Shown here piece after piece: positions 34,200 through 51,920 of a stretch of DNA of 54,572 nt. The notes below the pieces were generated by a model. The model saw nothing but the letters and a program-made list of their open reading frames with translations, had not been told where the DNA came from and made no database searches. The DNA comes from a virus (Duplodnaviria > Caudoviricetes). Numbering within the stretch: the first letter of the stretch is position 1; every line of letters begins with the position of its first letter. The stretch is from positions 1 to 54,572 of IMG/VR virus record IMGVR_UViG_3300005662_000054; one strand, written 5' to 3'. The translations under genes and the position numbers were made by a program.

Positions 34200-34203
34200 G
34201 AAT

Positions 34204-34641
34204 ATGAGCTTTGATTTGAAAATTCAAGACGGAGATCTATCTATAGGTACAGATGGAGATCTTAAGTTAGTTGAAAAAAAAGATAAATTAGTTCAAGATT
34301 TATTAAAAATTTCAACAACTACCAAAGGATCTAAGCAAAAATATCCATTTTATGGCTCTTTAATATCTAATTCGTTGATTGGTAGCGTTCTTCCAGAAGA
34401 TTTTACAAATACCTATGCTTCTTCTCAATTAAGAGAGTCTGTGCAATCTTTGGTGGAAATGCAAGCAATTCAGGAGAAATATCAATACTTATCACCGGAA
34501 GAATCTATTGGAGCAATTAGAGAAGTTTCAATTCAAAAATTTACATCCGACCCAAGATATTTTTTAATTTATATTTCTGTTTTAAATAAAGCCTTTACAA
34601 AGGTAGAAGCCCAATTTGAGTTTAGCACTACTGGTTTGTAG
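34204..34641 (+). CDS. Baseplate wedge protein, gp25/gpW-like
   Basis: MSFDLKIQDGDL...LVQDLLKI..T.KGS...YPFYGS.I; immediately upstream of baseplate J. Start moved from TTG 34153 to ATG 34204. Confidence 0.8.
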   Translation: MSFDLKIQDGDLSIGTDGDLKLVEKKDKLVQDLLKISTTTKGSKQKYPFYGSLISNSLIGSVLPEDFTNTYASSQLRESVQSLVEMQAIQEKYQYLSPEESIGAIREVSIQKFTSDPRYFLIYISVLNKAFTKVEAQFEFSTTGL

Positions 34642-34720: not shown

Positions 34721-37700
34721 ATGTCTAAAATTCGTACTTCCAGTGAAATTATAAGAAGTTATCTGGAGTTTTATAGAACTGCCCAGCCTCTTTTAGATAC
34801 TAAACCAGGCACAGTTGCTAGAGATTTATTGATTGACGGTCCATCAGATCAACTATCCAAGCTTTATGATGAATTAAATAAAGTATCTAGCCTTCAATCT
34901 TTAAGACAATCTTTTGGAAGTGATTTAGATAATTGGGCTCAAAATATTGGAGCTACTAGAAACAGAGGCGCTAGGGCAACAGTGCCAGCGTTATTATTAT
35001 TCGATAGCGTTGAAGCAGATATTGCTATTACAAAAGGCGATTTGCTTTTTGCTAAAAATGGAACTTCTTTTGCTATAATTAACAGCGTTTCTATTAATTC
35101 TCTTCAAGAAAATCAATATAAAGCAACAGTTGCAAGATATAAGTCAGATTTAGATTTTTTGGGAATTACCCAGCCATATGCAATTGAATTGGTCGTAGAA
35201 GCAACTGCATTTGGAGATCAAGGAAACATTTCTAAATACGGCATGATCAGAACAAATATATCTGGAATAACTAGTGTAACTAACGTGTTCCCTGCTAGCG
35301 GCGGACGACCTGCCGAAACTGACAGCGTATTCAAAAATAGAATTTTGTCTATTTTTAGCGGTGCCAATACTGGAACTTCTCTTGGATATTCTAGCACGGT
35401 CAGAACGGACCCTTCAGTTTTAGATGTTTTAGTAATTTCTCCAGGCGATGATTTGATGACCAGAGATGGAACTCAAGTAAATGTTGCAGAAGATGGGACG
35501 AGAACTATTATTTCAGAAGGAACAGGCGGCAAAGTAGATATTATCACCTACGGTATTAGACTACAAGAAAATGTTGACTCTTTTATTTATAGAGATAAAA
35601 GCAATACTGGAAATCCTACTAATTCTTTAAATGATTTTGTATTAGGTCAAATTTCTGGGGATGAAAATAAAACTGTTACTAGAAAAAGAATTGACAATTT
35701 AGCTTCTGGCATTTTGCCTTCTCAGCCAATTAATAACATTGTTTCTGTTGTAGGGTCTTCTAGCGGACCTAGCTTTAAAGAAAAAACCACTGATATCTTT
35801 GGAAGAGTATCTGGAAATTATGAATTAATTAGAGACACTGGTGGATACGCTAACTCTCCCTGGGGATTTGATAGACTACACTGGATTTCTAATAAAATTT
35901 TAGATTTACCAGAGGATAAAACAAAAAATAATTTTAATAATCAAGATCAATTATTTTATACAGACTCTACTGAAATTAAAAAAATTACTCAAAATATTGT
36001 TGTAACTAATGAAAATAGTAAAGTAGTATCTTCTGATAGAAGTTTAATACAATTATTGCACTATCCAGCAACTCTAGTCACTAGAGTATTTAACGTTTCT
36101 ACTGGAGAAAGATACTTAATTGCCAGCCAAAATCCTGATGGCACTGGCACAGTTAACACTACTGGAAGAATTAAAATTTCAGGCAAGTCTTTGCCTTCGA
36201 CTACCGATATTCTTCAAGTTGATTATACTTGGATTTTTGAATACGATCCATATTGGGATTTTGATAATAAGTCTTATTCTTTTAATGCTAGAGATGTTTC
36301 TGATAGCATTGATTGGGGATATTCTAATTTGGTTCGTAGAGAAAGAGGGGTCTTAACTTCTTCGGGACCATATTTATCTTTAAATGTGACTCATTCAATT
36401 TCTTCCGTTGTTAATGTTAATGTATTTACAGAAGAAACAACAAATGTCGTTCTTAATTCTGGAAAGTTATCGGTAATTGTTTCTAATGTTATTTCAAACA
36501 TCGTGTCTATTAAAAGAGTTTCTGATGGAGCAGAGCTGTGGAATACTCAAGATGCAGATGGATCTATTAGTTCTTTAGTAGCTTATCTTCCAAATGATAC
36601 AGTGGGCAAGTTTAATGACACTGTTACTGTAGTATATAATTCTTCAGATATTTATTCAGATACAGGGTCTTTTAATAACAATCAAATTACTATAATTCCT
36701 AGCGTCTTGGCTACGGCTGGCTCCATTGTAGAATGTACTTATATTGCAAACATTTCTTCGATTCTACCAAGCACCTTATTGTCTTCTTTACCAGCCATAA
36801 GAAGTGAAAATTATTTTAATACAAATATTTCAAGCTTGGTTGGAAACCAACCATTTTCTAATTTATTTTCTTTGGGAACTATTGTTCAAAACTTACGTCA
36901 AGCCCCAAGCAATTTATCATTTAATATTACTGGAACCATTGTTCCTGGCGTATTTACTGTAGCGGGTCAGTCAATTTCTTACGCAGCAGACATTTTATTT
37001 ACTGCAAGCAATGATGGACTCACTCATGATTTGTCTCCAGCAATAAGATCTTTCTTAAAATTAACCTCTAAAGACAGCATTCCATCTTCTTTAAAAGTTG
37101 CCAGACTAGTTAAATTTGAAAAGGTAATTACAGATTCTAGTTCTAATGTCTTGTCGGTCAGCCAAGAATATGACGTTCTAGGCACATCCCTAAAAGACAA
37201 TTCTTTGGTAAAATCAGAGGCAATTCAAGATTTGTCTTTAAGTAACTTCCAAGTAAAGTTACCAAGTACAATTGACAATTTAAACAACAATATTGTTATT
37301 GGTGACAAGATTCGAGTAAGATTTTATTTACTTAATAGTTCCGATTCTGAAAATGTATACTTTACTAAAGCAGGTACTCAGTATACTCAAAAGAAATTTG
37401 TTTATGTAGATACTATTGCCATCTCTAGCGGATTCAATAGTAGCGCTTCTTCGGCTGCAACATTAACTATTACAAACATGAATCAGCCAATTGCTAAGTC
37501 TAGATACAAATCATATTACGATTATATTGCTCCTAAAGTTAATGAAAGAATCACTATCACATCAAATTATAATAAATTAATAGGCGATGCAACGTTGTTA
37601 GTTGAAAGTACGAGACCAATCACTGCAGACGTATTGGTCAAAGCGGCAGAGCCAGTTTTAGTAGACGTTACTATGTACGTAGTAGTAACAGAGGAATTTA

Positions 37701-37951
37701 AAAACTCATCTACAGTTGTGAAGCAAAACGTTCAAGACTCTCTTACTTCTGCATTAAATACCAATTTGTTAAATCAAATTGTTGATGCTTCAGATCTGAT
37801 TAATTCTGCATATACAGTAGCTGGAGTTGATCGTGCTAGAGTCATTTATTTCAATAAGACAGGTGTAAATGGTTCTGTTCTAAGCGTTCAAGCACTGAAA
37901 AATCAATACATTGTAGCAAATACAGTTTCTGTAGTTATAGAAGAGCGATAA
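34721..37951 (+). CDS. Baseplate J / gp6-like wedge protein with large central insertion
   Basis: D.KPGTVARDLL, LDNWAQN.G..R, VEATAFGDQGNI, GGRPAETDSVFKNRI, GGKVDI, and C-terminal ASDLIN....VAGVDR. Confidence 0.85.
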   Translation: MSKIRTSSEIIRSYLEFYRTAQPLLDTKPGTVARDLLIDGPSDQLSKLYDELNKVSSLQSLRQSFGSDLDNWAQNIGATRNRGARATVPALLLFDSVEADIAITKGDLLFAKNGTSFAIINSVSINSLQENQYKATVARYKSDLDFLGITQPYAIELVVEATAFGDQGNISKYGMIRTNISGITSVTNVFPASGGRPAETDSVFKNRILSIFSGANTGTSLGYSSTVRTDPSVLDVLVISPGDDLMTRDGTQVNVAEDGTRTIISEGTGGKVDIITYGIRLQENVDSFIYRDKSNTGNPTNSLNDFVLGQISGDENKTVTRKRIDNLASGILPSQPINNIVSVVGSSSGPSFKEKTTDIFGRVSGNYELIRDTGGYANSPWGFDRLHWISNKILDLPEDKTKNNFNNQDQLFYTDSTEIKKITQNIVVTNENSKVVSSDRSLIQLLHYPATLVTRVFNVSTGERYLIASQNPDGTGTVNTTGRIKISGKSLPSTTDILQVDYTWIFEYDPYWDFDNKSYSFNARDVSDSIDWGYSNLVRRERGVLTSSGPYLSLNVTHSISSVVNVNVFTEETTNVVLNSGKLSVIVSNVISNIVSIKRVSDGAELWNTQDADGSISSLVAYLPNDTVGKFNDTVTVVYNSSDIYSDTGSFNNNQITIIPSVLATAGSIVECTYIANISSILPSTLLSSLPAIRSENYFNTNISSLVGNQPFSNLFSLGTIVQNLRQAPSNLSFNITGTIVPGVFTVAGQSISYAADILFTASNDGLTHDLSPAIRSFLKLTSKDSIPSSLKVARLVKFEKVITDSSSNVLSVSQEYDVLGTSLKDNSLVKSEAIQDLSLSNFQVKLPSTIDNLNNNIVIGDKIRVRFYLLNSSDSENVYFTKAGTQYTQKKFVYVDTIAISSGFNSSASSAATLTITNMNQPIAKSRYKSYYDYIAPKVNERITITSNYNKLIGDATLLVESTRPITADVLVKAAEPVLVDVTMYVVVTEEFKNSSTVVKQNVQDSLTSALNTNLLNQIVDASDLINSAYTVAGVDRARVIYFNKTGVNGSVLSVQALKNQYIVANTVSVVIEER

Positions 37952-37953
37952 TC

Positions 37954-40900
37954 ATGGCAGTTTTAAAAGCGTTAGAAGTTAAAGTAATTAATAGTACAAA
38001 AATTCAAGCTAAATTTAGCTTAAATTTAGATTTATTAATTAATACTTCAAACGTTTCTATTGTTTCTAATTTACAAAATATTCCCAATCCAGAAGTATTA
38101 AAAGTTAATGTTGTTAATGATCGCTTAGATATACTTACCAGACCTTTATTTCCATATGTACAATATTATATAATTTTTAAGTCTTCTTCTACTTCTGATT
38201 TTAAATCCATTAATGGCGTATTTCTCATTGATGATGAAAGGCTTAATAAGTTTTTAATTTTAGGTCCAGAAGATTCAAGCAATACATTAAGAGATTATTT
38301 AATTGATCAGCTTAAAGATGATCCTTATAATTTAGATTATGGCACAATTTCTAGAGACATAGTAAATGCCAATGCTAATTTTTTAGCTCGTGGGCTCTAT
38401 GATATTAAACAATTAAGAAACGATAACTATTTAAGTAGAACAATTTTTGATGAATTAAAGACTCGTGGACCAGGACCAACTGATAGGCTTTCTGAGGAAG
38501 GTACCTATGAAATAATTAAAGTTTCTAAAAATTTAAATAATAAATTATTTTCTGATACTATTTCTTATACTGAATTTCCTTATTTTCCAATAACTCTTCA
38601 AAAAGTTAAAATTAATTCTGAAAAATTAATACCAGGTACAATCAAATCAACTTTTGAAGGCTTGAAATTAAATTTGTCTCGTAATTTGGTTACTTCTGTA
38701 TCTTCTATTACTATTAAATATTTTAATGGAAATATATATAATTATAATATTCCAGCTTTAGGCTATCAGATTAAAGATAATAGATACGATCCTGAGTTTG
38801 CATCTTCTTATATGGAACTTGAAACTAATCAAATATTATTATCTTCTAAAGTTTTAGAAGATGATAATTTTAAAGTTCCCGTGGCAAATGATTATATATT
38901 AGTGTCATATGAGTTTAAAGATTTAGGAAAGATTGTTTCTGAAGATACTTTAGAAGTTTATAAAATTTCTGAAATAATTAGAGAAGTTGTCCCTCCTATT
39001 TTTACAGTGTTTTCATTGCCTCACTATCCAATAGTTGATGAGCAGGGGAATGTTCCCAGCTTATCTGGTGTAGAGTTTTTGGACCCGCAATCTAATCCTC
39101 CCTTTTCTGCGGCTCATCCTGCATTTATTAAAGAGTTAGTATTTAAACTTGATGGCTTGCCAAAAGCAAAGGGAGAATATTGTGTAGATTATAACACCGG
39201 TACCGTTTATGTGTATGGTGCAGAAACTAATGATGGAACTGGAGACTTTCCTCCCGTAGCCTCTTATTTGTATAAAAATTCATATGTTAAAGATTTAGAT
39301 TATATTTATGACAGCGACACTTATGAATTAGTGCGGTCTCCTTTAAGATACCTTGAAGGAGATGAAGGTATTGTTAAATTTTCTTATGAAAAAACTTTAG
39401 TTCCTGACATCGACTTTATACCGCAAGTACATAAAGAGCAACTAGAAGAAAGAGTTGAGAATAGATTTACTTCTACATCTTCTTTTACTGTAAAAAATTC
39501 TCCTATTACTAATGTTTTTAGAATTTATAATGAAACTACTGGTGAGATTTATAATATAGATCGTTATTCTTTTAATTCTGTATATTTTACCTCTACTAAT
39601 TCTCCTAGAGTTCTAAAAACAACTAGAGAGAGAGTTAATTTTTCAAATATAGATAATGAGCAACTTATAGTTAATGAAGAATTAACTAATTTGGCTAGTG
39701 TTAGAATATTTAAAATAAATTTACAAAATAATAGAATAGTTTCCGCTTCCGAGGATTCAACTGGTTCAGCCTTTAATAGCTCTACAAATTTTAGTCGCAC
39801 GGATATTTTTGAAAAAGAATTATATTATGATTATATTTCTTTAGATGAGTTTAATAATATTAATAAATTATCTATTGGTCAATATTTAATTAATTATAAT
39901 GATGGTATCGTTTATGTTGCCGTAGATTCAAATAGTCCATATGATGTTGGAACTATTTCTTATAAGAAATCATTTATCTCTACGCAAAATAAGCATATTT
40001 TAACCGTTGGAAAGCTATATTATAGCACATCTCCAAATATAGTGTATAAAGATGTGCAATATAGCAGCTTTACAGATAGCGAAATACTACCTCAAACTTT
40101 CGAAGTTTCTGATGAAAGATTTTTAAATAATAATGACTTATTTCCTTATGTAGTGTCCTCTAACACTATTACCGTTACAGATGATATTAGTTTTGTAAGA
40201 GGGGTATATGATCTTTATGATTTAAATAATAATGTTAATTATATTAATTTTGGAGAAAATGCAACTTATTCCAATAATATAATTACTTTAATTCCTATTA
40301 CTCAAGTTTCTGATTCTTTAGTTGCCTCTGGATTAGTAGTTTCTGTTCCATATGTGTCTCCTGGCGCAGAAATACATGAAGTCACATCAATAATTAGAAA
40401 ATCTGATAATTTAGAATTATTTGATGGATTGGCTACTGTTTCCGGATACAACATTACGTTATCGGGTGTTAATTCTCCCGTTGTAGGAGATGAAGTTATT
40501 GTATTCTATTCTCTTAAAATGAATGGTTCTGCAACTCCAATTGTAGATTATGCAAGAGGAGAGTATTATGTTGATTACGAATATGTTGCCGATGAAGTTA
40601 TCGTAAGTTATGAATACGGTGATAATTGCTTAGATTTTTCACAGTCTGGCTCCTTAAATCAAGGAGAACAATATTATGTAACTTATAAAGTTGGAGCCCT
40701 TAGAGATTCTCTATTGAAGAATTTCGGATCTTTAGTTAATATTCCAATATTAAATGATTTTGATGTCTCTCTTGATAGAGAAAGATATCGTGATGCTTTA
40801 AGAGGCGCTTTACAATCTTTTACTAAAGGTCCAACACTGCCTTCAATGAAATCTTTGGTAGAGTTTATAACTCATATTAAACCAGAGATTATTGAAGCAG

Positions 40901-43900
40901 CCTTTGAAAATTGGAATTTAAATACTGGTCACTTATATTCAAATCAAATTAATACTACTGGTGATTTATTATTGGTCACTGGAAAATTTGATAATGGTGT
41001 TTTAATAGAAAATTCTAATGAATCTATTACAATGCCAGTAACTAGCAATTTAAAATTAGAAGAAGGCACTTTGGAACTGTGGACTATCCCAAAGTGGAAT
41101 GGACTAGACAATGATGCAGCTTTAACTTTTCAAGTTTTAAAAGATGGATATGTTTTGCCTAGTAGTTCAATTTATATTGGATCAACTGGAAAGCATCCAA
41201 CATTTGACTTAAATAATAAATTTTTAGTATCTAAAAGCGAAGAAACTACAGGTTTGCCAGTAGCCATTTATACAAATACTGGTGCTTTTATTTTCTATGA
41301 CGATATTGAATCTCAATGGAAATTCTTAGTCAGAGAAAAAGTTGCAGACGGATATGTTTTCTCAGGCACTATTGAAACCAGTGGAAACTTTTATCACGTA
41401 GATTTTATTGATGGTCTTGGCGAAATTAATGATAAATTAAAAACAAAAAATAAAACAATTCAATTTGTTTTTAACATTGACGCTCAAGATGAGCTTTATC
41501 CTGATGGATATAAAGACGGATATTCTGTTGATGGATATTTGGATGGTTATTTAGACGGATACTATCCTTTGGATGGATATTCCCCAGGATATTCATTTGA
41601 TGGAATTAGATTCATGTCAGATGAAGAACATTATTTATTTGACTTTGGTAAAGAAGAATTTAAAAATAGATTCTCCTTATTTAAGGATGGTTCTGGTTAT
41701 CTTACATTTAGAGTCTTTGATAATGGCGCTTATGATAGAATTAATAAATATTCTTTAAGTGCAGATATTTCCAACTGGAAATCAGGAGAGGCTCATCATG
41801 TAGCCGTTTCTTGGAAGCTAGGAACTAAAGATAAATCAGATGAAATGCACTTATTTATTGATGGTATAGAAGTTCCAAATATTATAAAATATGGCGGAAG
41901 ACCAGTTTCTAATTTAACAGATAGATTTAGAACAGTTGTTCCAGAGTACGTGCTAGGAACAATTACTAAAAAAATAATTGAAGGCAATGATTTAGTTACA
42001 AACGGTACAAATTTAGTGTACTCAAATACAATTGATTTTGCCTCTCAAGGAATTGTTCCTGGAGACATATTAGAAATCAATGAGTTGGGTCTTGGTTCTT
42101 ATACTATTGCAGCCGTATCTTCCAACTATTTAACTTTGTCTTCTATAGTTCCAAGCACTTTAACAGATGCAAAGTTCTCTGTTAATCCATATTCTGTAGT
42201 TGTCTCTTCTGAAATTGATTTATATAAAAACTTTACCGTTTCTTTACTTAGAAGCGGAGAAGAGATTGAGCTTCCAGGACTAAGAGCTGATTTTCCAGGA
42301 TACGAAATTAGCAAGAACTTTTTAAATCAAAATATTTTAACTATTTTAGGTGATGCGGAAATTGGAGACCAAATATTTATTAGAACTTTAGGTTTGAATT
42401 TCCGAAGAGCCAGAGAAAGAGTTTATGTCTGGGGCAATAATTCTCATATTTTGAAAACTCAAATTCCTTCTCCTATTAATTTAGATGAAGTTAAAGTTTT
42501 CCCAGTAATTCTACCTAGTGTTGCAATTGGACCATCTAATTCTACTTATTCTTTGGGCTTGTTTAATTTTACTACAACCGATGTCAGCCAAACCTCTTCA
42601 TCTACTGAAGGTAGGAGCTTAGCTGTTAAAGTACTTTCTGGAAACGTAGATTTTAGCACTCCAGTTACTGTAACCATTTATGGTAATACTGACTCTACTC
42701 CAGATGAAACTTTAACATTTAATGCAGCAGGAACTCAGTATACCGCTAAAAAATTTCAAACTATCACTTCCATTGATGCAGCGGTCAAGCCTTTTAATTC
42801 ATCTAAAAACTCTGCAGTAATTGAAATTAAAGAGCGATACACCATTACTTATCCTGAAGGCAACTCTATATTCCCAGTTATTAGATACTCTTATAAAACT
42901 CAAACTGGAAATACTTTATTTGGTACAATAGGCACGACTACGGTTTCAGATACCAATGGCTACTTTATAGGATCTAACATTGGTCAATCATTAATAATTA
43001 ATTCTCCTCCTTCTGTTGCAGGATCTTATCAAATTATAGCTCGAAACTCTGATACCAGCATAGAAATAAGTCCTGCTTTACCAGCTACTTTCTCTAATGG
43101 CTCTTACGATATTTTCAATACAAATATTGGAAGATCAGGTTTTGCCAATGGATTCTTTACTTTTGAAACGGCAGGTCAGGTAAATGTTCCTTATGTTTTA
43201 AAACAAGGATTCTACGACTTTGATTATTCCGTTAATTTAGAAGTTGCGTTTGATCCTTTAACTGAAGAACTAATTCACATTGGGTCAAGCATTTTAAAAC
43301 AAAATCAAGCATCTGCAATTATTGATGAACTTAGAATTTTATCTAAAATGTTAACTGATGTTAGAGTTGGAGAAACTTTAGCACAAGGAACGGAAAGTAT
43401 TACCGTAGATGCTGCAAAAATTAGACCGTTTAGAAAAAACAGTGACACTTTGGCATTGTTGCATTTTGATGAAGTGCCATTTGTTAACGACTCTGATTAT
43501 TGGGTAACTGCTGACAAAGCCTATATTCAAACAGATAATGGCGTAAATAGTAATTTTGGCAAAGCTTTAGTTATCAAAGACAGACCTTTAGCATATGATA
43601 ATTTAGGATATTTATTTACTAACCTTGAAGGTACCATTGAATTTTGGGTATCTCCTATGTTTGATACTGCTAACGATCCTAATTATAGATTTTATTTTGA
43701 CGCAGCAGCTTTAATAACCGAAGAGCTAGTTTCTATTTCCAAAGGAACGATAAAATTAAATAATAGAGCTTCTTCAATTCAATCAATTTACGTTGAAGGT
43801 GATAAAAAGAATTATGCCTCAGGTGCAGTGATTCAATCAGACTTTAAAACAGTCAGATTAAATACGGCTCTGCCTTATCAAAAAACACCTATAAAAGTTA

Positions 43901-44625
43901 CTTATGTCCAAGTTGGAACTTCTGGTGATAGAATCTCAATTTATAAAGATCCTGAAGGTTATATTAATTTAAATGTTAGAGCATCTGGAAACGATTATCA
44001 GGTAAGACAACCTGTATTGTGGGCTCGAAATTCTTGGCATAGAATAAAAGCTACATATAAATTTAACCAGCCCAACAATCAAGATGAAATACGCTTGTTT
44101 GTAGATGGGGAGGAAAGAGGCACAGTTAGATTTGGTTCTGGATTATTATTTGGTGCTGGAATTGTTTTCGGTCAAGGATTTGCTGGAGTTGATAATTCTA
44201 AATTAACTGCAGATATGAATTTCTTAGATGTTATAACAAAATTCTATATTGGCTCTGATATTAGCTCTGTTAATTTGGCAAAAGCAAGAATAGACAATTT
44301 CAAAATTTCTAATGCTATTCAGCCTTTCTATACTGTTGCTGGACAGGAAAAGGACATTAATTATAACTCTAATATTGAGACTGTTTTGCCAGTGGTAGAA
44401 GATTTATACACTACTTTTATGTTGAATTTTGATAAAATATATTCTAGAAATCAAGAATGGGCTTTATTAAGAGATAAATATTTTGGAATCTATAATTTTA
44501 CAATTAAAATAATAGACTCATTTGATATAGTTTCTGAGAGTGATAAGGTAAAACAAATATTAGAAACTTTAATTGATATTTTAAAACCTGCTCAATCTAA
44601 AGTTACTCTGGAATATTTGGCTTAA
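37954..44625 (+). CDS. Giant baseplate wedge (gpI/gp7-like) protein with two LamG/ConA-like domains (2223 aa)
   Basis: ERYRDAL....SFTKGPT..SM and terminal ILKPAQSKV (KPAH-like); LamG motifs EGTLELW/HHVAVSW/LFIDG/IDELRI and EGTIEFW/WHRI/LFVDG/IDNFKIS; eight DGY. Confidence 0.65.
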   Translation: MAVLKALEVKVINSTKIQAKFSLNLDLLINTSNVSIVSNLQNIPNPEVLKVNVVNDRLDILTRPLFPYVQYYIIFKSSSTSDFKSINGVFLIDDERLNKFLILGPEDSSNTLRDYLIDQLKDDPYNLDYGTISRDIVNANANFLARGLYDIKQLRNDNYLSRTIFDELKTRGPGPTDRLSEEGTYEIIKVSKNLNNKLFSDTISYTEFPYFPITLQKVKINSEKLIPGTIKSTFEGLKLNLSRNLVTSVSSITIKYFNGNIYNYNIPALGYQIKDNRYDPEFASSYMELETNQILLSSKVLEDDNFKVPVANDYILVSYEFKDLGKIVSEDTLEVYKISEIIREVVPPIFTVFSLPHYPIVDEQGNVPSLSGVEFLDPQSNPPFSAAHPAFIKELVFKLDGLPKAKGEYCVDYNTGTVYVYGAETNDGTGDFPPVASYLYKNSYVKDLDYIYDSDTYELVRSPLRYLEGDEGIVKFSYEKTLVPDIDFIPQVHKEQLEERVENRFTSTSSFTVKNSPITNVFRIYNETTGEIYNIDRYSFNSVYFTSTNSPRVLKTTRERVNFSNIDNEQLIVNEELTNLASVRIFKINLQNNRIVSASEDSTGSAFNSSTNFSRTDIFEKELYYDYISLDEFNNINKLSIGQYLINYNDGIVYVAVDSNSPYDVGTISYKKSFISTQNKHILTVGKLYYSTSPNIVYKDVQYSSFTDSEILPQTFEVSDERFLNNNDLFPYVVSSNTITVTDDISFVRGVYDLYDLNNNVNYINFGENATYSNNIITLIPITQVSDSLVASGLVVSVPYVSPGAEIHEVTSIIRKSDNLELFDGLATVSGYNITLSGVNSPVVGDEVIVFYSLKMNGSATPIVDYARGEYYVDYEYVADEVIVSYEYGDNCLDFSQSGSLNQGEQYYVTYKVGALRDSLLKNFGSLVNIPILNDFDVSLDRERYRDALRGALQSFTKGPTLPSMKSLVEFITHIKPEIIEAAFENWNLNTGHLYSNQINTTGDLLLVTGKFDNGVLIENSNESITMPVTSNLKLEEGTLELWTIPKWNGLDNDAALTFQVLKDGYVLPSSSIYIGSTGKHPTFDLNNKFLVSKSEETTGLPVAIYTNTGAFIFYDDIESQWKFLVREKVADGYVFSGTIETSGNFYHVDFIDGLGEINDKLKTKNKTIQFVFNIDAQDELYPDGYKDGYSVDGYLDGYLDGYYPLDGYSPGYSFDGIRFMSDEEHYLFDFGKEEFKNRFSLFKDGSGYLTFRVFDNGAYDRINKYSLSADISNWKSGEAHHVAVSWKLGTKDKSDEMHLFIDGIEVPNIIKYGGRPVSNLTDRFRTVVPEYVLGTITKKIIEGNDLVTNGTNLVYSNTIDFASQGIVPGDILEINELGLGSYTIAAVSSNYLTLSSIVPSTLTDAKFSVNPYSVVVSSEIDLYKNFTVSLLRSGEEIELPGLRADFPGYEISKNFLNQNILTILGDAEIGDQIFIRTLGLNFRRARERVYVWGNNSHILKTQIPSPINLDEVKVFPVILPSVAIGPSNSTYSLGLFNFTTTDVSQTSSSTEGRSLAVKVLSGNVDFSTPVTVTIYGNTDSTPDETLTFNAAGTQYTAKKFQTITSIDAAVKPFNSSKNSAVIEIKERYTITYPEGNSIFPVIRYSYKTQTGNTLFGTIGTTTVSDTNGYFIGSNIGQSLIINSPPSVAGSYQIIARNSDTSIEISPALPATFSNGSYDIFNTNIGRSGFANGFFTFETAGQVNVPYVLKQGFYDFDYSVNLEVAFDPLTEELIHIGSSILKQNQASAIIDELRILSKMLTDVRVGETLAQGTESITVDAAKIRPFRKNSDTLALLHFDEVPFVNDSDYWVTADKAYIQTDNGVNSNFGKALVIKDRPLAYDNLGYLFTNLEGTIEFWVSPMFDTANDPNYRFYFDAAALITEELVSISKGTIKLNNRASSIQSIYVEGDKKNYASGAVIQSDFKTVRLNTALPYQKTPIKVTYVQVGTSGDRISIYKDPEGYINLNVRASGNDYQVRQPVLWARNSWHRIKATYKFNQPNNQDEIRLFVDGEERGTVRFGSGLLFGAGIVFGQGFAGVDNSKLTADMNFLDVITKFYIGSDISSVNLAKARIDNFKISNAIQPFYTVAGQEKDINYNSNIETVLPVVEDLYTTFMLNFDKIYSRNQEWALLRDKYFGIYNFTIKIIDSFDIVSESDKVKQILETLIDILKPAQSKVTLEYLA
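41503..41592 (+). repeat. In-frame tandem DGY peptide repeat
   Basis: Encodes DGYKDGYSVDGYLDGYLDGYYPLDGYSPGY; codons vary (gat/gac, gga/ggt, tat/tac). Confidence 0.9.
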
Positions 44626-44647: not shown

Positions 44648-47569
44648 ATGACTAAAAGAATAGAAGTTTCCGCTTTGCAAAATTTATTTAGAGACGCCCA
44701 ACGTGTATCTAAAGAAGATTTAGACACAGAGCAAAACTATAATAACAAAATACAATCTTCTATAATTAACAATCATTTTGGTTCTGGAGTTTTATTGGAA
44801 AATCCAGTTCCAGTAATTCTTTTTGATTCTGATGTTTTAACTTCTGTTCAAGCCAGCTTATTAAGTACTGGTAATTTTGATGGAACTGGACTTTCCCCTC
44901 ATCTACAGCCATCCGATATCAATCTCGGAAATCAATTAGAAGTTGAAATTACTGATTCTTCTGCAGTTGGAAGATTCTCTGCAAAAGTAGCTATAATTGG
45001 ATTATCTTTTGATGATACTTTGCAAATTGATCGCTTTTATTTTTATAAAAATGAAACTCAAGTAACTGCAAATCACTACAAAAGAATTTTAGCAATTTTA
45101 ACCAATGATTTCAAAGGCAATAATAATTGCTCTAGAAATTTAGGTGGTAGATTAGTTGTTAGAGAAGCTAGATCTTTCCAAGTATCTCGTGATCCAATAA
45201 TGATATCTCAAGATGTAGAGCCTGATTTATTTTGGAGAGATTTTAAAATCGCAAATCCCACTTCTACTCTCCAAGCTGTATTGCAAACTGCAATAGGACC
45301 AGAGTACAATGTTGACTCTTTAAATATTAATACTACTGGAAGACCTAATAGAGTTTTAAATACCAACGATGTTTCTTCTCATGTTGGTCAAAAATTTATT
45401 GCTAAAACAGACAATGTTCAAAAAATTACATTATTAATGGGTGCTTCTGGAGACGAATCTGTTCTAGAAGAAAATAAATATGACTGGTCCGGTTCTTTGG
45501 TTGTTAGCGTTTATGCTCTTCAAACAACGGTCTCATGTCCAACGGATATTATTCCTGCTTTGGCAATTGACTTTGAACCTCAGTCAGAGCCATTAGTTCA
45601 ATTTGCTTTCGACCAAATTGATTTAAGAGAAATTGGTTATGTTTTAACAGATACATTGCAACCTGTTGATATTGTATTTTCTTCTTCTAAAATTGGCATT
45701 CCAAATGGTTTAAAATTAGGTAATTATTATGCCTTTACCGTTAAAAGAACAGGTGATGCATCTGTTGGTTCTATTTTATTTGGCTCTGGAAATGATAGAA
45801 CAGAAGATTCAAAATTAACTTTATATAGTGGTTCTGGATGGGTTGATGTTTCAGAAGAAGACTTGTGGTATCAAGTTTGGACGGATGCCGTTAAAATTTC
45901 AGACGGTCAAGGATATGACGCTGGGCAAGGAATAGTTATTCCTAAAACTACTGTTGACACCTTATCGGGCGCTACAATAGACAATAAAGAAAAATACTAT
46001 TCTTTCAATGACACTGGTTTTAATATTTTAAATATTGGTGTTATTCAAGCTGTAACAGAAGCTAGTGTAATAGAGCAAGATGAGCGCACTGGTAATGATA
46101 CTTTTTCCAGAAAGCAATTTGTTCCTAGTCTAAGTTTAGTATCCGAAACTGAGTTACAAACTTTACAAAATACTTCGGATCCATTAATTGTAGCTGTGGC
46201 TAAAGATCTTAATCCTAAAAAGAATCCTTTATTATCAAAATCTCAAAATTTTATAGGTCTAGCTAAAGGAAATACTTTTTGTATTATTAATCCTGACCCA
46301 GATTTAATTACTAACAATTTAGTTGGTTCTACTTTAATTCCAAATAGCTTATCAAGTAATAAATATAAAGTTGTTAAAACCAATTTGTGTACAGATGGTT
46401 ATGGCGATGTAAACGGTGATGGAGTTATAGACGACAGCGATATAACTTTAATTTCCACTTTAATTGGAGAAAGTCTTTATTTTTCATCTACTCAGCAAAA
46501 AATTGTTGATGGTTACATTAACACTTTAGATTTGTTAAGAGCCGATTTGGACGGAGACGGTTACATTACATCTAATGATGCCGATCTTCTTTCATTGTAT
46601 GTAAATAAAAATATAAATTCTTTTCCAGTAGGAACTTCATTTACTCATATTTGCTTAGAGGTTCAGCCTTTAATTGGTCGTTATGATGGTTACTTTGACT
46701 GTGGTGACGGTTATATTAGAGTAGACGGCTCTTCTTTGAATTTGGTGCCTGCCTCGTCTTTAACTCCTTCTGAGTTAATATATGACGGATATTATATTCC
46801 ATCTACTTTGGAGCTGGACCCTGCATTTACTACAGTTCCATTTAATGGTGTTACATATCAAGTTGTGCCTAAGCCATTTTGGCAAGACTGGTTTATTAGC
46901 TTATCATCAGAGGCGAGACTTGTCCCAGCTGCATTTACTTATATGGAAAATCTTGAAAGTTTTTCATGTAATCCAGTTGCAGAAACTGTATGCGAAGAAA
47001 GATTTGCAGAAGCGCCAACAATAGAAATTGGTAGAAATGATTTCTTTATTCCAAATAATCTATTAATTGGTCGTGGTCAAATATTAAATCCAGATGGAAG
47101 TCATTTTAAACAAGACGTTGAAGTTGCAACTATTGAATTGAGATTGCCACAAATTCCATTAAATGAATCAAGTATTAATATTTATGAAAAATTTGTTGTA
47201 GATGTGGGCGGTGGCAAGACTGCAGCAGGATTCCCTGCAATGAAATATTCTGATTGTTCTTTTGTTAAAATAGAAGATATTGTTTTAAACAGAGTGAAAT
47301 TCAATGTTGCAGTTCAATCTTTTTATAAGAATCTAGATGGCTATGATGCTGATTTGGATGGCTACGTGGTAATTGAAGATCCTACTATTGGAGCCTACAT
47401 TGATCATGCGACTGGAATTTTGACTTTAAATGCTCAAGATTTAGCAGAAGACAATGTGTACTTATCCTTGGTTACAAAGCTCACTATTACAGTGTATTTA
47501 AAGAAGGCAGGCTGGAATAATCAGCATTTAGTAATTACTTCTGATGTTCTTCAAGGTCTACTTTCTTGA
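44648..47569 (+). CDS. Putative virion structural protein with a type I dockerin-like (paired EF-hand) domain
   Basis: GDVNGDGVIDDSDITLI...RADLDGDGYITSNDADLLSLYV...INSFP at about 46400-46627; N-terminal Q.VSKEDL..EQ.Y resembles fibre-attachment starts; eight DGY. Confidence 0.65.
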   Translation: MTKRIEVSALQNLFRDAQRVSKEDLDTEQNYNNKIQSSIINNHFGSGVLLENPVPVILFDSDVLTSVQASLLSTGNFDGTGLSPHLQPSDINLGNQLEVEITDSSAVGRFSAKVAIIGLSFDDTLQIDRFYFYKNETQVTANHYKRILAILTNDFKGNNNCSRNLGGRLVVREARSFQVSRDPIMISQDVEPDLFWRDFKIANPTSTLQAVLQTAIGPEYNVDSLNINTTGRPNRVLNTNDVSSHVGQKFIAKTDNVQKITLLMGASGDESVLEENKYDWSGSLVVSVYALQTTVSCPTDIIPALAIDFEPQSEPLVQFAFDQIDLREIGYVLTDTLQPVDIVFSSSKIGIPNGLKLGNYYAFTVKRTGDASVGSILFGSGNDRTEDSKLTLYSGSGWVDVSEEDLWYQVWTDAVKISDGQGYDAGQGIVIPKTTVDTLSGATIDNKEKYYSFNDTGFNILNIGVIQAVTEASVIEQDERTGNDTFSRKQFVPSLSLVSETELQTLQNTSDPLIVAVAKDLNPKKNPLLSKSQNFIGLAKGNTFCIINPDPDLITNNLVGSTLIPNSLSSNKYKVVKTNLCTDGYGDVNGDGVIDDSDITLISTLIGESLYFSSTQQKIVDGYINTLDLLRADLDGDGYITSNDADLLSLYVNKNINSFPVGTSFTHICLEVQPLIGRYDGYFDCGDGYIRVDGSSLNLVPASSLTPSELIYDGYYIPSTLELDPAFTTVPFNGVTYQVVPKPFWQDWFISLSSEARLVPAAFTYMENLESFSCNPVAETVCEERFAEAPTIEIGRNDFFIPNNLLIGRGQILNPDGSHFKQDVEVATIELRLPQIPLNESSINIYEKFVVDVGGGKTAAGFPAMKYSDCSFVKIEDIVLNRVKFNVAVQSFYKNLDGYDADLDGYVVIEDPTIGAYIDHATGILTLNAQDLAEDNVYLSLVTKLTITVYLKKAGWNNQHLVITSDVLQGLLS

Positions 47570-47590: not shown

Positions 47591-48685
47591 ATGCGAGTCA
47601 AGGTACAAGGATTTTTATTTGGCAAGTCTCATAGCTGGGCTTATGTTAATCAAAATTTAGGAAGATCTCTTCTTAATCAGGGTCACGAAGTAGAATTTAT
47701 TTCTACAGATGGAAATAAACCTGAACATACCCCTGAAGATTTAAAGCCATTTATAAAATTAAGACCATCTGGTGAATATGATATGCAAGTATCATATACT
47801 GCCATGATTAATTTTCAAAATTATTTATCTTATGGTTCTAAAAATCGTTTTGGAATATGGTGTTATGAATTTCCAATTATTCCAAAAGAATTTATTAAAT
47901 ATTATAAATTTGTAGATAAAATTTTAGCCCCAAGCCAGTTTGCTAAAGATATTTTTGTTAATAATAAAATTCCAGAAGAATGTGTTTCGGTAGTTCCACA
48001 TGGAATTAATTTAGAGCATTTTGCTTATAAGCAAAAATATCCTTTAAAAACTAAAAAGAAATTAAAATTTTTAATTCCATTGGGACAGCCTCATATTAGA
48101 AAGGCTATCCCTGAAACAATAGAAGCTTTTTATAAGGCTTTTACTAACAAAGATGATGTGTGCTTAGTCGCAAAAGTTCCATCAGCTTCTTTGGATAAAA
48201 AAGCTCCTTTTGAAGTTGATGTAAAGAAAATAATTCATCAATTAAATCAAAAATACAAAAATCATCCAGAAATTGAGCTAATTACTACTTATGTTCCTAA
48301 TATGGTTTCTTTATTCAATGCTTGTGATGTTGTATACTCTTTAACTCATGCTGAATGTTTTTTCATGCCAGCTTTGGAAGGTTTTGCTGCTGATAAATTA
48401 GTTATTGTGCCTCGCCATGGGGGTCAGTTAGATTTTTGCAATGATGACAATAGTATTTTAATTTCTGGAAAAGAAGTGAGGGCTCCAATGGATGCTCAGT
48501 ATTGGAGCGCATCTGTGTATAATTCTTATTTTGAAGCAGACCAAGAACACGCAGTAGAATCATTGAGAAAAGTATATCAGTCATATGATTCTATTTTAGA
48601 ATCTAAAAACGAATCCATGCAAAATACTGTTAATCAATATACTTGGGACAATGCGTTAAATTTAATTTTGAAAGAAGTAAAATGA
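47591..48685 (+). CDS. Glycosyltransferase, GT4-like (GT-B fold)
   Basis: APSQFAKD...VVPHGI...RKAI...AFYKAF...ECFFMPALEGFA (E-x7-E motif). Confidence 0.85.
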   Translation: MRVKVQGFLFGKSHSWAYVNQNLGRSLLNQGHEVEFISTDGNKPEHTPEDLKPFIKLRPSGEYDMQVSYTAMINFQNYLSYGSKNRFGIWCYEFPIIPKEFIKYYKFVDKILAPSQFAKDIFVNNKIPEECVSVVPHGINLEHFAYKQKYPLKTKKKLKFLIPLGQPHIRKAIPETIEAFYKAFTNKDDVCLVAKVPSASLDKKAPFEVDVKKIIHQLNQKYKNHPEIELITTYVPNMVSLFNACDVVYSLTHAECFFMPALEGFAADKLVIVPRHGGQLDFCNDDNSILISGKEVRAPMDAQYWSASVYNSYFEADQEHAVESLRKVYQSYDSILESKNESMQNTVNQYTWDNALNLILKEVK

Positions 48686-49368
48686 ATTTAATTAGCGTTA
48701 TTATACCAGTGTATAACCAAGTGCATTTTACAAGAAAATGCATCGAAGATTTATCTCATTTACCTGAGCAGTGCCAAATTATCGTCGTAGATAATAATAG
48801 TATAGATGGTACTAGTGATTTTTTTAAATCATTAAATAAAAAAAATATTAAATATATTAAATTAGATAAAAATTTAGGTTTTGGAGCCGCCAATAATATT
48901 GGCGTAAATCATTCGGAAAGCGACAATTTATTATTTCTAAATAATGACGTAGCAGTTCTAAAAGATAAGTCTACATGGATCGATTCTTTAATTGAAAAAT
49001 GTCAGGATAGATTAATTTCTTCTCAGTCTGGATTATTAAATAGTAATTTTAATTTTGTTCGTGAAGCATCTGCTCCTCATCTTTTGCAAGACCCATTTGA
49101 ATATTTAAGTGGCTGGTCAATTATGGGATCGAGAAAATTATTTGATCAAATAGCGAAAGAAGAAGGGGTTATTTGGTCTAAAAAATATTTTGCTTATTTT
49201 GAAGACGCTCATTTAAGTTGGAAGGCGAATGAATTAAAAATTCCAATGGAAGTAGTGAAGACTCCATTGCATCATTTTGGAAGAATTACATCGAGTAAAA
49301 TGGGTCTATCTAACTTATATCAAGAATCTTATAAGATATTTTCTTCTTATTGGAAGGGAAAGAAATGA
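48682..49368 (+). CDS. Glycosyltransferase family 2
   Basis: ISVIIPVYNQ...IIVVDNNSIDGT...NLGFGAANNIG...LFLNNDV...YFED; ATGA overlap at 48682. Confidence 0.9.
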   Translation: MNLISVIIPVYNQVHFTRKCIEDLSHLPEQCQIIVVDNNSIDGTSDFFKSLNKKNIKYIKLDKNLGFGAANNIGVNHSESDNLLFLNNDVAVLKDKSTWIDSLIEKCQDRLISSQSGLLNSNFNFVREASAPHLLQDPFEYLSGWSIMGSRKLFDQIAKEEGVIWSKKYFAYFEDAHLSWKANELKIPMEVVKTPLHHFGRITSSKMGLSNLYQESYKIFSSYWKGKK

Positions 49369-50174
49369 AATTACACATTCTAACATTAACTTGGAATGGC
49401 TCTTTTCTTTTAAAGAGACTGGCTCCAGGACTTCTTAGTAATTTAAAAAATCTTGATATTGATGCCCATTGGTATGTTAGAAGCAATGGATGCAAAGATG
49501 ATTCAGTTTCTTATTTAGAATCTTTGGGCAATAAAGTTTCTATCTTAAAAAAAGACCATAACAGAGACAATTTTTCTCAAGGTGTTAATTCTTTAGCTGT
49601 TATGGCTAAAAACAGTATAGGAAATGAAGATTTATTTTTACTTTTGAACAATGATATCTTTTTTAAAGATTCAAATGCTTTAAAAGTAATTATAGATACT
49701 TATATTAAGTACAAGCCTGGAGTTGTTGGAGCAAAATTAAATTATACTAATTCTAATAAGTTACAACATGCTGGTGTAATATTTTCTTCAAAGTATGGTA
49801 ACATGCCTTGGCATTATAAAGCAAATGAAGAAGAAGACTCTGATTCTTGTAAAAATAGAGAGTTTCAGGCGGTAACGGGTGCGTGTCTTCTTACCCCTTG
49901 TAATTTATTTTTTGAAATGAATATGCTTGATGAAAAATTTAATTGGGCTTTTGAGGATATTGCATATACTTTAAAAGTTGGCAAAACAGGCAAAAAAATA
50001 ATTTATTGTGGCGGAGTAAATATAGATCATGGAGAATCAGTTTCTTTAAAAAAGAATCCTGTAAATAAATTAATGATGGGACCTAATGTTAAACATTTTA
50101 AAGAAAATTATGATTCTTTATATAAATTAGATCATGATTTATATTTAAAAAATAAGGATTATAAGTTAATATGA
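49365..50174 (+). CDS. Glycosyltransferase family 2
   Basis: ILTLTWN...NFSQGVN...LLLNNDI...VVGAKL...LQHAGV...AVTGACLL...FEDI; ATGA overlap at 49365. Confidence 0.88.
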   Translation: MKLHILTLTWNGSFLLKRLAPGLLSNLKNLDIDAHWYVRSNGCKDDSVSYLESLGNKVSILKKDHNRDNFSQGVNSLAVMAKNSIGNEDLFLLLNNDIFFKDSNALKVIIDTYIKYKPGVVGAKLNYTNSNKLQHAGVIFSSKYGNMPWHYKANEEEDSDSCKNREFQAVTGACLLTPCNLFFEMNMLDEKFNWAFEDIAYTLKVGKTGKKIIYCGGVNIDHGESVSLKKNPVNKLMMGPNVKHFKENYDSLYKLDHDLYLKNKDYKLI

Positions 50175-51148
50175 AGTCTTTATGTTTGCCATATTGCCCT
50201 GGAATACCTTGGGACATTAACGATCAAGATATGATCGTTAAAAAGTTAAAGGGAGAGTTTCGTTCTCTTACTACAAAAAATATTAATGTGGTTTGTCATG
50301 GCGGATTGTTGGAATCATTCTTTTCTACTTTTTGTATAGAATATTTTAAATTAAAATACCCCGAAAAAAATATATTTTGGCATGGCAGAGAAGAATTTAA
50401 AGAAATTATAAAATTACAAGGAGCTGCTAATTATTCTTCTGAAATTACAAAAGAAATTTCGGGATCCTATCCGATTCATTTCTTTAAAGATAAAGAAAAT
50501 AATGCATATTTTAATTTATTAGATAATTATTTTGAATATCACACCTATCTAGGTAAAAAAATTAAAAAAAATAAAAATAATTTTATTGATATTTTTAACA
50601 AAAATTTTATGTTGGATAAATTATTAAATTATCCATTTGTTCTTAGAAACCAAGATAGAGATATAGAGTTTGAGGCTTGGTGTAAATTAAATAAGTATGT
50701 AATAAATAAGCCTTATATTTTAATTTTGCCTGATAGACTTACTCATTCTTTGCACAAATTAGATTTTATTAATTTTTCTATGATGGAGCTAAGGGCGCTG
50801 TCCTCTGTTTTAGCACTGCAGGGCATTCAAACTATCATTATGTCAGATGATCCTTCAAAATATTACGGTAATTTTAAATTTATAAAATATTCTTTTACTA
50901 GATTTTTATCTTTAGCAAGAAATGCTAAAATTGTATTGTCTAGACAGCCTGATTATTCAATAATATCATTATTATTATTTAAAAATAATACTTATTCTTA
51001 CTTTTTAAGACATATGCCAAAAATTAAATTAAAACCTACTATGAGAAGAGTAAAAGGCGCAGTGGATCCTGATTGGAGGCACATAAAGCGTCAAGATGCA
51101 TTACCTTCTATCATTGAACAAATAACCAGGAAGATTTATGAACGCTAA
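50171..51148 (+). CDS. Divergent GT9 (heptosyltransferase)-like protein
   Basis: INVVCHGGLLESFFST...FKLKYPEKNIFW resembles the GT9 N-terminus (GGLGD..); KPYILILP; embedded in the GT cluster. Confidence 0.45.
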   Translation: MKSLCLPYCPGIPWDINDQDMIVKKLKGEFRSLTTKNINVVCHGGLLESFFSTFCIEYFKLKYPEKNIFWHGREEFKEIIKLQGAANYSSEITKEISGSYPIHFFKDKENNAYFNLLDNYFEYHTYLGKKIKKNKNNFIDIFNKNFMLDKLLNYPFVLRNQDRDIEFEAWCKLNKYVINKPYILILPDRLTHSLHKLDFINFSMMELRALSSVLALQGIQTIIMSDDPSKYYGNFKFIKYSFTRFLSLARNAKIVLSRQPDYSIISLLLFKNNTYSYFLRHMPKIKLKPTMRRVKGAVDPDWRHIKRQDALPSIIEQITRKIYER

Positions 51149-51917
51149 ATTATTAATGGTAACTTATAATAGATTAAATTTAACAAAAGAGACTTTAAAT
51201 AATATTTTTGAAGTTACTAAAACGCCTTTTGAATTAATTATTGTAGATAATGCTTCTCAAGATGGCACTGTTGAATATTTAAAAGAGCTTTTATCTAACA
51301 AATCTAAAGATAGTTATTATTTAGGAGCTAAGTTATTATGCAATTCTGAAAATTTAGGAATTGCTATTGGAAGAAATCAAACACTAGGTCTTGCAGGTGA
51401 CGCTTCTTGGTACGCCACATTAGATAATGATGTTTTGTTACCAGATAACTGGTTACAAAAGTGTATTAATATTATGACTCTTGAACCTCGCTATGGAATG
51501 CTTGGAGTAAATTTTGAAAACGTTAAATATCCCTTGTTAGAAGTTGGATCGTATAATGTTCAGCATAAACAACAGGGAAATTTAGGAACTGCTTGTATGG
51601 TTTTCTCCAAAAAAGTTCATAAAATGATTGGATTTTTTAATGATTTTGATTATGGCAAATATGGACTAGAAGATAGCGACTATGGATTCAGGGCAAGAGT
51701 TGCTGGATTTAAGCTAGGATATTTAGAAGATACCGGAACTCATTTAGGAGAAGATGGGGCAGATAAAAGTTCATACAGGCAGTTTAAAACAGAGGAGCAC
51801 AATAAATTTGTGCAAAAGTTTTATAACAATTGTAAATTGTATTACAGTAATCAAAAACCAATATATGTTCCATTAAATAAAGAAAAATATAAATTTAATA
51901 ATATAATATCATTTTAA
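51138..51917 (+). CDS. Glycosyltransferase family 2
   Basis: LLMVTYNRL...LIIVDNASQDGT...NLGIAIGRN...LDNDV...YGLEDSDY..R...AG. Confidence 0.9.
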   Translation: MNAKLLMVTYNRLNLTKETLNNIFEVTKTPFELIIVDNASQDGTVEYLKELLSNKSKDSYYLGAKLLCNSENLGIAIGRNQTLGLAGDASWYATLDNDVLLPDNWLQKCINIMTLEPRYGMLGVNFENVKYPLLEVGSYNVQHKQQGNLGTACMVFSKKVHKMIGFFNDFDYGKYGLEDSDYGFRARVAGFKLGYLEDTGTHLGEDGADKSSYRQFKTEEHNKFVQKFYNNCKLYYSNQKPIYVPLNKEKYKFNNIISF

Positions 51918-51920
51918 ATT

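Follow-up and report, generated by a model that had tools for sequence, protein, structure and literature searches.

Serine-rich-repeat adhesins of Gram-positive bacteria carry low-complexity repeat arrays on which cytoplasmic glycosyltransferases prime and extend sugars (PMC6973325). For the mycobacteriophages Che8 and Rita, covalent glycans are reported on capsid proteins and the glycosyltransferases are phage-encoded (Freeman et al. 2023 as cited in PMC11256854). The element described here is a six-copy array of the tripeptide Asp-Gly-Tyr (DGY) within a 2223-residue protein, encoded on a 54,572-nucleotide stretch of viral DNA (IMG/VR virus record IMGVR_UViG_3300005662_000054; Duplodnaviria, Caudoviricetes), the whole of which is referred to as the window. 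The array is very probably an exposed and selected cluster of a short motif and, as a surface array of this kind, possibly a modification site; that its tyrosines are acceptors for the phage's own glycosyltransferases is a guess that we put forward as a possibility.

The likeness to the adhesins with GtfA/GtfB lies in a low-complexity array of hydroxyl-bearing residues, variable in length, on a surface protein, and in glycosyltransferase genes in the same locus; the adhesin loci have one priming pair and variable extenders. The adhesin acceptors are Ser and Thr in hundreds of repeats, whereas the candidate acceptor here is Tyr in 2–7 units of a strict tripeptide. The adhesins are modified in the cytoplasm before export (PMC6973325), and a like modification, before assembly, is proposed for the phage. 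Unlike in the adhesin systems, no DUF1975 domain was found in the GT4 protein of the window and no accessory Sec system is present, and glycosylation is here only proposed. Che8 and Rita, of cluster F1, share with the window phage-encoded glycosyltransferases, although glycans on virion proteins are reported for those phages and genes alone are seen here. They are siphoviruses of Mycobacterium with genomes of approximately 60 kb and capsid targets, whereas the candidate proteins here belong to the tail, baseplate and fibres of a huge myovirus; no tripeptide sequon or tyrosine linkage is mentioned for them in the available text (PMC11256854).

With regard to the fold that bears the array, the LG/LNS domains of agrin, laminin and neurexin are jelly rolls with loops of variable length decorating the sandwich. 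Their variable inserts, which sit in rim loops, arise by alternative splicing, however, and not from tripeptide repeats, and their sequence similarity to the phage domain is marginal. With regard to the motif, the DxDxDG loops of EF-hand and dockerin modules also have Asp-Gly followed by a hydrophobic or aromatic residue, but the array units lack Asp or Asn at −2 and −4 and an acidic residue at +6 or +7, and their spacing is variable. Three-residue sequons are established in N-x-S/T and in Bacteroidota O-glycosylation (D-S/T-A/I/L/V/M/T). They resemble DGY as short, strict motifs on exposed loops of many proteins that are gained and lost; their acceptors are Asn or Ser/Thr and their enzymes extracytoplasmic. 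To our knowledge, no enzyme is known for DGY.

A first-pass annotation, made from the sequence alone, had described six DGY units with spacers of one to three residues and synonymous codon variation, and translation of the region bore this out:

41503..41592, plus strand: DGY array DGYKDGYSVDGYLDGYLDGYYPLDGYSPGY, residues 1184–1213 of the 2223-residue protein, in the frame of open reading frame (ORF) 37954-44625
41530..41561, plus strand: sole stretch that is still a tandem repeat at the DNA level, 12-nucleotide unit GATGGATATTTG, 2.7 copies, 80% matches, Tandem Repeats Finder score 43

Six exact units stand at residues 1184, 1188, 1193, 1197, 1201 and 1207, together with a terminal PGY; the spacers read K, SV, L, L, YPL and SP (one to three residues each), those between units being 1, 2, 1, 1 and 3 residues long. 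In array order the unit codons are GATGGATAT, GACGGATAT, GATGGATAT, GATGGTTAT, GACGGATAC and GATGGATAT, which amounts to four synonymous spellings of the nine-base unit among the six. The protein as a whole holds 8 DGY by comparison with 0.57 expected from its composition, and 6 of these fall within 26 residues. The repeat at 41530-41561 preserves a trace of how a DGY-Leu unit was duplicated in frame. Outside it the units differ at synonymous sites, and tandem similarity at the DNA level is limited to these 2.7 copies; the array was built by duplication, yet there is no present-day hypermutable tract.

That the peptide rather than the DNA unit is conserved had also been proposed, and codon usage agrees with this. 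The units use all four Gly codons and both codons each for Asp and Tyr, in proportions near those with which the same three residues are encoded in the remainder of the domain. Across the window the DNA word GAYGGNTAY appears 33 times in an ORF frame, never in the other frames and once on the other strand; a DNA-level motif such as a binding or restriction site was ruled out on the ratio of 33 to 0 between the reading frame and the others. Comparison of 40 pairs of loops with the same layout showed synonymous differences at 110/264 unit codons and non-synonymous differences at 81/142 spacer codons; the units of these pairs lack non-synonymous change by construction, and the pairs were used for synonymous divergence and for the spacers only. 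As the codons vary, the DNA word is always in frame and the columns of the first unit are invariant (see below), selection acts on the peptide: the DGY tripeptide is under purifying selection and multiplies by short duplications.

Homologues had been named as the place to look for loss of the array or drift of its residues. A word-seeded search gave 439 relatives, nearly all of approximately 2220 residues among the best 120 of the 439, and a full hidden Markov model search gave 472 cluster representatives at E<=1e-3 (94 at E<=1e-30). Homologues keep the array, with 0 to 7 copies and without drift of D, G or Y. In an alignment of 62 full-length proteins (47–86% identity), D1184, G1185 and Y1186 are invariant in 62/62 and the last unit (residue 1207) is kept in 56/62, while the middle units are found in 43/62 (residue 1188) and 42/62 (residue 1201), with other columns at no more than 7 of 62. 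The loop itself was compared as the 41 residues before a conserved strand, for which 166 sequences gave 142 distinct loops. Together these contain 455 DGY by comparison with 0 DGF, 2 NGY and 1 EGY; a non-terminal DG is followed by a residue other than Tyr in only 10 cases, none of them Phe. As Tyr is never replaced by Phe after Asp-Gly in these loops, the hydroxyl group is implicated. Loops with 0, 1, 2, 3, 4, 5, 6 and 7 copies number 10, 6, 35, 22, 42, 18, 8 and 1, respectively. Their spacers are of 0–9 residues, mostly 1 or 3, and are rich in Ser, Pro, Thr and Val, with Lys and Arg together making up 10/778 residues.

A quick maximum-likelihood tree, computed from the domain sequences after the loops had been taken out (48 rows), resolved two clades with a Shimodaira-Hasegawa-like approximate likelihood ratio test (SH-aLRT) value of 100, one of 15 rows with 0–1 units at the window's loop and one of 33 rows with 2–7; sister rows are often one unit apart. 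In two distant representatives, P0170 (near residue 2113) and P0173 (near residue 1374), the middle array units are Asp-Ala-Tyr (DGYLDAYDAYDAYDGY), and from these sequences some lineages appear to accept a small residue other than Gly at the middle position of the motif. One homologue (L035:13016-14056) has a 26-residue insertion (PVEVPTGL...) in the LamG strand region just after the array, at alignment columns ~260-286, which is unique among the aligned sequences.

DGY is not confined to the array. Among the ORFs of the window it is the most over-represented tripeptide (33 versus 3.3 expected), and it is limited to nine proteins; these include the sheath (though not its conserved C-terminal part), a protein with fn3, two very large proteins, the 2223-residue array protein itself and the product of the gene next to it. 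It is absent from the tube-like, gp25-like and J-like proteins, from several other large proteins and from the glycosyltransferases of the window. Ratios of observed to expected tripeptides were calculated for plus-strand ORFs in 46 non-duplicate sources, namely the window and 45 related loci:

DGY: 11.6x (769 versus 66 by composition; 172 from dipeptide counts)
DGT: 2.45x
DGS: 1.61x
DGF: 1.08x
NGY: 0.66x
EGY: 0.46x
DGW: 0.37x

The DGY excess is present in every relative examined, at G+C contents of 28–48%, and in the 150 best cluster representatives DGY reaches 513 by comparison with 52 expected. This clade places the motif on some virion proteins, which probably face outward. Residues flanking DGY in the 46 sources showed enrichment of Cys at −2 (6.3x) and +5 (4.8x), which suggests that other virion proteins have a subclass of C-x-D-G-Y-x-x-C sites, with residues 583 and 687 in the 973-residue protein encoded by the next gene as examples. 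Homologues of this 973-residue protein have 3–10 DGY in 12/12 loci. It also contains a dockerin type I module (Pfam E 9.4e-08, residues 585–653), for which a Dockerin_1 match was found in 5/9 relatives examined, and two canonical DxDxDG calcium loops that contain DGY (residues 637 and 904). In L118 the C-terminal DGY pair of the homologue of this protein has grown into a four-unit array. Literature searches on the DGY motif, DGY repeats and the tripeptide found no paper that its entry and the opening of its abstract marked as relevant.

Alignments placed DGY arrays at five different loops of the LamG-like domain across lineages, the window's loop included, in addition to single units elsewhere on the window's own domain:

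41143..41151, plus strand: single DGY at residue 1064, another loop of the domain; DGY in 32/62 homologues
41347..41355, plus strand: single DGY at residue 1132, where the model has a beta-hairpin turn and then a strand; DGY in 28/62 homologues
Arrays near residue 1064: P0148 (three units), P0140 (two units and one DAY)
Arrays before a conserved Arg-Trp: P0131 (three), P0207 (five)
Arrays at the residue-1132 hairpin (3–6 units): L063 (three), L097 (six), P0137 (five), P0202 (six)
Arrays after the FYDV strand: P0139 (three, aligned); P0145 (three) and P0150 (three), both placed by flanking sequence only
Arrays at the window's loop: the window (six), P0140 (four), P0147 (four)

In more distant LamG proteins (L061, L101, L115, L125, L129, P0177 and P0191), 3–7 units lie just before the equivalent strand, as placed by flanks only. 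On these alignments it is the unit and its multiplicity on the LamG-like domain that are kept, and not its place in the fold. The array had been called the clearest single piece of evidence for selection on DGY; this was a fair assessment, and it is strengthened by the arrays that other lineages have at four further loops. When IMG/VR was scanned for DNA encoding (DGYx)3, the matches included family members with the array elsewhere, but mostly unrelated low-complexity proteins of Gly, Asp and Tyr, and the pattern alone is therefore non-specific. The latter proteins come from contigs of ~10-60 kb, mostly of 45–75% G+C (L062, L064, L066, L067, L069, L071-L079, L081-L094 and others); they are of ~60-350 residues, consist largely of Gly/Asp/Tyr repeats such as GDGYGDGYGYG, and in some cases have a short conserved C-terminal tail. 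These small proteins are a different phenomenon from the baseplate arrays.

The first-pass annotation had placed the array inside the first LamG domain of the protein, between the sequences EGTLELW and HHVAVSW. The flanks are as described (residues 1036–1042 and 1280–1286, respectively), but the array closes an insertion of approximately 150 residues and does not lie straight in a canonical LamG domain:

40966..41988, plus strand: first LamG-like domain with a ~150-residue beta insertion, residues 1005–1345
43903..44181, plus strand: second LamG domain, residues 1984–2076; Pfam Laminin_G_3, E 2.1e-10, 41.4 bits versus a cut-off of 27.6

Only the second LamG was matched by Pfam in the window protein, the first domain having no Pfam match at E<=0.1. 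Laminin_G_3 is weakly matched by 10/48 homologous first domains at this threshold (best E 2.3e-05), and the part of the first domain after the array has weak similarity to the second LamG (E 1.1e-4). An AlphaFold2 model of residues 1005–1345, built on 48 homologues, had a mean predicted local distance difference test (pLDDT) score of 75.5. In VIA-align this model matched agrin G2 (Z 9.2, root-mean-square deviation 2.7, 108 residues aligned), laminin alpha1 LG4-5 (Z 8.1), a neurexin LNS domain (8.1) and serum amyloid P (7.9), although the method itself warns that a Z score of about 8 may reflect a frequent arrangement. By their entry titles, the majority of the 50 rows listed have jelly rolls of the LG/LNS, pentraxin, CBM40 or neurotoxin-binding-domain type; entry 1pz7 is entitled 'Modulation of agrin function by alternative splicing and Ca2+ binding'. 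Only ~110-125 residues of model range 1–310 align, because the beta-rich insertion (~150 residues, model residues ~60-208) interrupts the jelly roll. Foldseek found no match in the PDB at E<=1e-3 for the domain model, and sequence searches of solved structures gave nothing meaningful (best E 1.6 for the array peptide and 0.39 for the domain profile). On the model, the first LamG domain is predicted to be real, with a two-sheet jelly roll of LG/LNS type.

The array forms the last loop of the insertion, between the insertion's final strand (IQFVFNID) and strand FDGIRFMSD, with which the chain returns to the sandwich. Its pLDDT is below 50 over model residues 183–204 of the six-copy model; in an AlphaFold2 model of a two-copy relative the first unit and the residues preceding it are below 50, and the ten-residue block holding most of the loop averages 52. 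The loop, which had been proposed to be exposed, is on these models probably flexible and solvent-exposed. As spacing is variable and includes no spacer at all (DGYDGYDGY), a regular fold of the array is excluded. A collagen-like Gly-X-Y or other regular repeat fold was rejected on the varying spacing and on the low pLDDT in both models; a spacer of 0 occurs in only 25/323 intervals.

All large ORFs of the window are on the plus strand, and the genes around the array are as follows:

16058-18487, plus strand: tail sheath gene
18527-19144, plus strand: weak match to virion structural protein family phrog_985, possibly the tube from its place after the sheath gene
34153-34641, plus strand: gp25-like baseplate protein
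34721..37951, plus strand: baseplate J / gp6-like wedge protein, with no DGY
37954..44625, plus strand: gene of the 2223-residue protein, a single long ORF directly 3' of the baseplate-J gene
44648..47569, plus strand: 973-residue protein rich in DGY (8 copies), with a calcium-loop module of dockerin type, next gene 3' of the gene of the 2223-residue protein
47591-54572, plus strand: block of glycosyltransferase genes (GT4, GT2, GT2, GT2+GT6)
47591-48685, plus strand: GT4-type glycosyltransferase, directly after the gene of the 973-residue protein; candidate motif reader
48643-49368, plus strand: GT2-type glycosyltransferase after the GT4 gene; candidate motif reader
51138-51917, plus strand: GT2 glycosyltransferase
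51921-54572, plus strand: GT2+GT6 fusion, running off the window end

In simpler myoviruses the gene of the peripheral wedge protein comes after gp6/J. From this gene order we infer that the 2223-residue protein is a protein of the baseplate periphery, in the gene position of P2 gpI and T4 gp7. PHROGs contained no match for it, and no relative was found in deposited phage genomes (tblastn with residues 950–1549 against 50,697 records). As the estimated completeness of the IMG/VR record is 10% and homologues of the 2223-residue protein were found on contigs of up to 459 kb, the window is a fragment of a huge phage, a myovirus.

The phages that share this unit differ widely in base composition and habitat and must have very different hosts, which argues for a partner that is probably common to the clade and against a host-specific receptor. 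The reading that we favour, tentatively, is that the array tyrosines are glycosylated. Short in-frame duplications yield DGY units that selection on the peptide then retains; the phage's own cytoplasmic GT4 and GT2 glycosyltransferases would attach sugar to the tyrosine hydroxyl during assembly; and the outcome would be a tuft of glycans on the baseplate rim. In its general form, which we consider possible but doubtful, DGY would be a virus-encoded three-residue O-glycosylation sequon on tyrosine, read by a cytoplasmic phage glycosyltransferase on flexible loops of outer virion proteins and multiplied at free loops of the LamG domain to give a glycan brush. The GT4 and GT2 genes begin 2.9 kb downstream of the array gene, which is co-location only, and at least one glycosyltransferase is encoded downstream in 9/9 relatives examined (GT4-type in 8, GT2 in 7).

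Several observations weigh against glycosylation of the array. The array tyrosines are candidate sites at a guess, and our literature search found no report of tyrosine glycosylation in phage. The window glycosyltransferases match generic family models only (PDB, NCBIfam), far below every curated cut-off, and none of these matches names an acceptor; DUF1975, the hallmark of GtfA/GtfB, was not found in the window, whose GT4 protein matches Glyco_transf_4 and Glycos_transf_1 only. These enzymes could instead act on DNA or on host envelope sugars. DNA-glycosylating phage enzymes have been described (10.1101/2023.12.21.572611), and a Fapy-DNA-glycosylase gene lies among the glycosyltransferase genes in 3/9 loci. 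One clade (15/48 rows) has only 0–1 units at the window's loop, and the array is therefore dispensable there. The DGY counts include orthologous sites and are not independent events. Finally, in 22 structural proteins of T4, taken as a control, DGY was found 5 times by comparison with 2.0 expected (2.5x), such that part of the excess may be structural; we know of no report of T4 virion glycosylation.

A different reading of the same loop, which we regard as rather unlikely, is that it binds directly, with Asp carboxylates and Tyr rings holding cations (Ca2+, Mg2+ or Fe3+) or common features of envelope polysaccharides, and with many weak units giving avidity as the baseplate lands. Members of the LG/LNS/pentraxin/CBM40 fold group bind glycans, often through Ca2+ on the loop rim, and the VIA-align list includes entries with bound calcium or sugar; the loop has a strongly acidic character, with Lys and Arg avoided, the 973-residue protein next to it has true calcium loops holding DGY, and a generic ligand would explain one unit in very diverse phages. 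The composition of the unit argues otherwise. In calcium loops Asp, Asn and Glu normally replace one another, but both NGY and EGY fall below expectation, and Tyr is not a usual Ca2+ ligand; sites that stack sugars will usually accept Phe or Trp, but DGF stands at expectation and DGW is depleted; and three residues in a disordered loop make a poor preformed site. Asp or Asn at both −2 and −4, the DxDxDG context, is found in only 2/33 DGY of the window, both in the 973-residue protein, and Asp is not among the residues enriched at −2 of DGY in the 46 sources. A DxDxDG calcium loop was rejected for the array itself on sequence, with 0/6 units in that context.

The breadth of the motif would also fit docking within the virion, DGY being a short linear motif that a second virion protein, such as a fibre, whisker or decoration protein, recognises, and the array a multivalent point of attachment or stowing on the baseplate rim. 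The spread of DGY over the sheath, fn3-containing, 1739-residue, 2223-residue and 973-residue proteins to the exclusion of the tube-like, gp25-like, baseplate-J and other proteins is in keeping with this, as are arrays that turn up at whichever loop is available, and a phage-encoded reader would explain one unit across the clade. We nevertheless consider docking improbable, as fixed docking sites are normally conserved in position whereas DGY sites and their number turn over quickly, and no candidate reader domain was identified. The least probable of the readings, in our judgement, has no specific reader: a slippage-prone, tolerated low-complexity loop in which DGY is favoured as an Asp-Gly turn and Tyr strand start in beta-rich tail proteins. 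Part of the array is indeed still a 12-nucleotide tandem repeat, the DGY at residue 1132 lies in the model at a hairpin turn that leads into a strand, the T4 structural proteins have their mild excess and one clade does without an array at the window's loop. Tolerance, however, is contradicted by D, G and Y that remain exact although their synonymous sites are randomised and the spacers vary, and by a first unit that is invariant in 62/62. Asn-Gly is the best former of type I' turns, but it is under-represented before Tyr, and DGF is not enriched; the excess in the clade, at 10–12x, also stands four- to five-fold above that of T4.

The strictness of a tripeptide that recurs in multiple copies in exposed loops, and is dispersed over some, probably outer, proteins of a large uncultured clade of 300-460-kb phages, implies a reader. 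Should this be a glycosyltransferase, DGY would be a testable sequon for tyrosine glycosylation, and on the literature searched the first to be defined; huge phages would sugar-coat their tails, with a bearing on adsorption, stability and recognition by hosts and grazers, and virion glycosylation would extend to a large environmental clade of huge phages. If instead the unit itself binds cations or glycans, it would be a minimal adhesive module. In either case the array lends itself best to a test, as a 30-residue peptide or as the 341-residue domain with its six sites.

Further observations concern the two ends of the window and the corresponding genes of relatives. The fusion encoded at 51921-54572 consists of ~400 residues without a match, a GT2 domain (residues ~410-560) and a family-6 glycosyltransferase domain (~656-874; Pfam E 9.7e-36), and a GT2 and family-6 glycosyltransferase fusion as in the window, of 896 residues, is present in L005. 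Three loci of the clade without an array at the window's loop have a formamidopyrimidine-DNA-glycosylase gene between glycosyltransferase genes (L042:23080-23910, L044:25504-26412 and L048:23791-24612), and in all three a GDP-mannose-4,6-dehydratase-like gene follows the glycosyltransferase genes; this hints that the block may, at least in part, be devoted to the chemistry of DNA or of sugar nucleotides and not to modifying protein. At the other end, upstream of the structural genes, positions 1-926 of the window hold a fragment of a NifS/IscS-like cysteine desulfurase gene, truncated at the start of the window, and after it a small ORF (603-926) resembling an HNH endonuclease.

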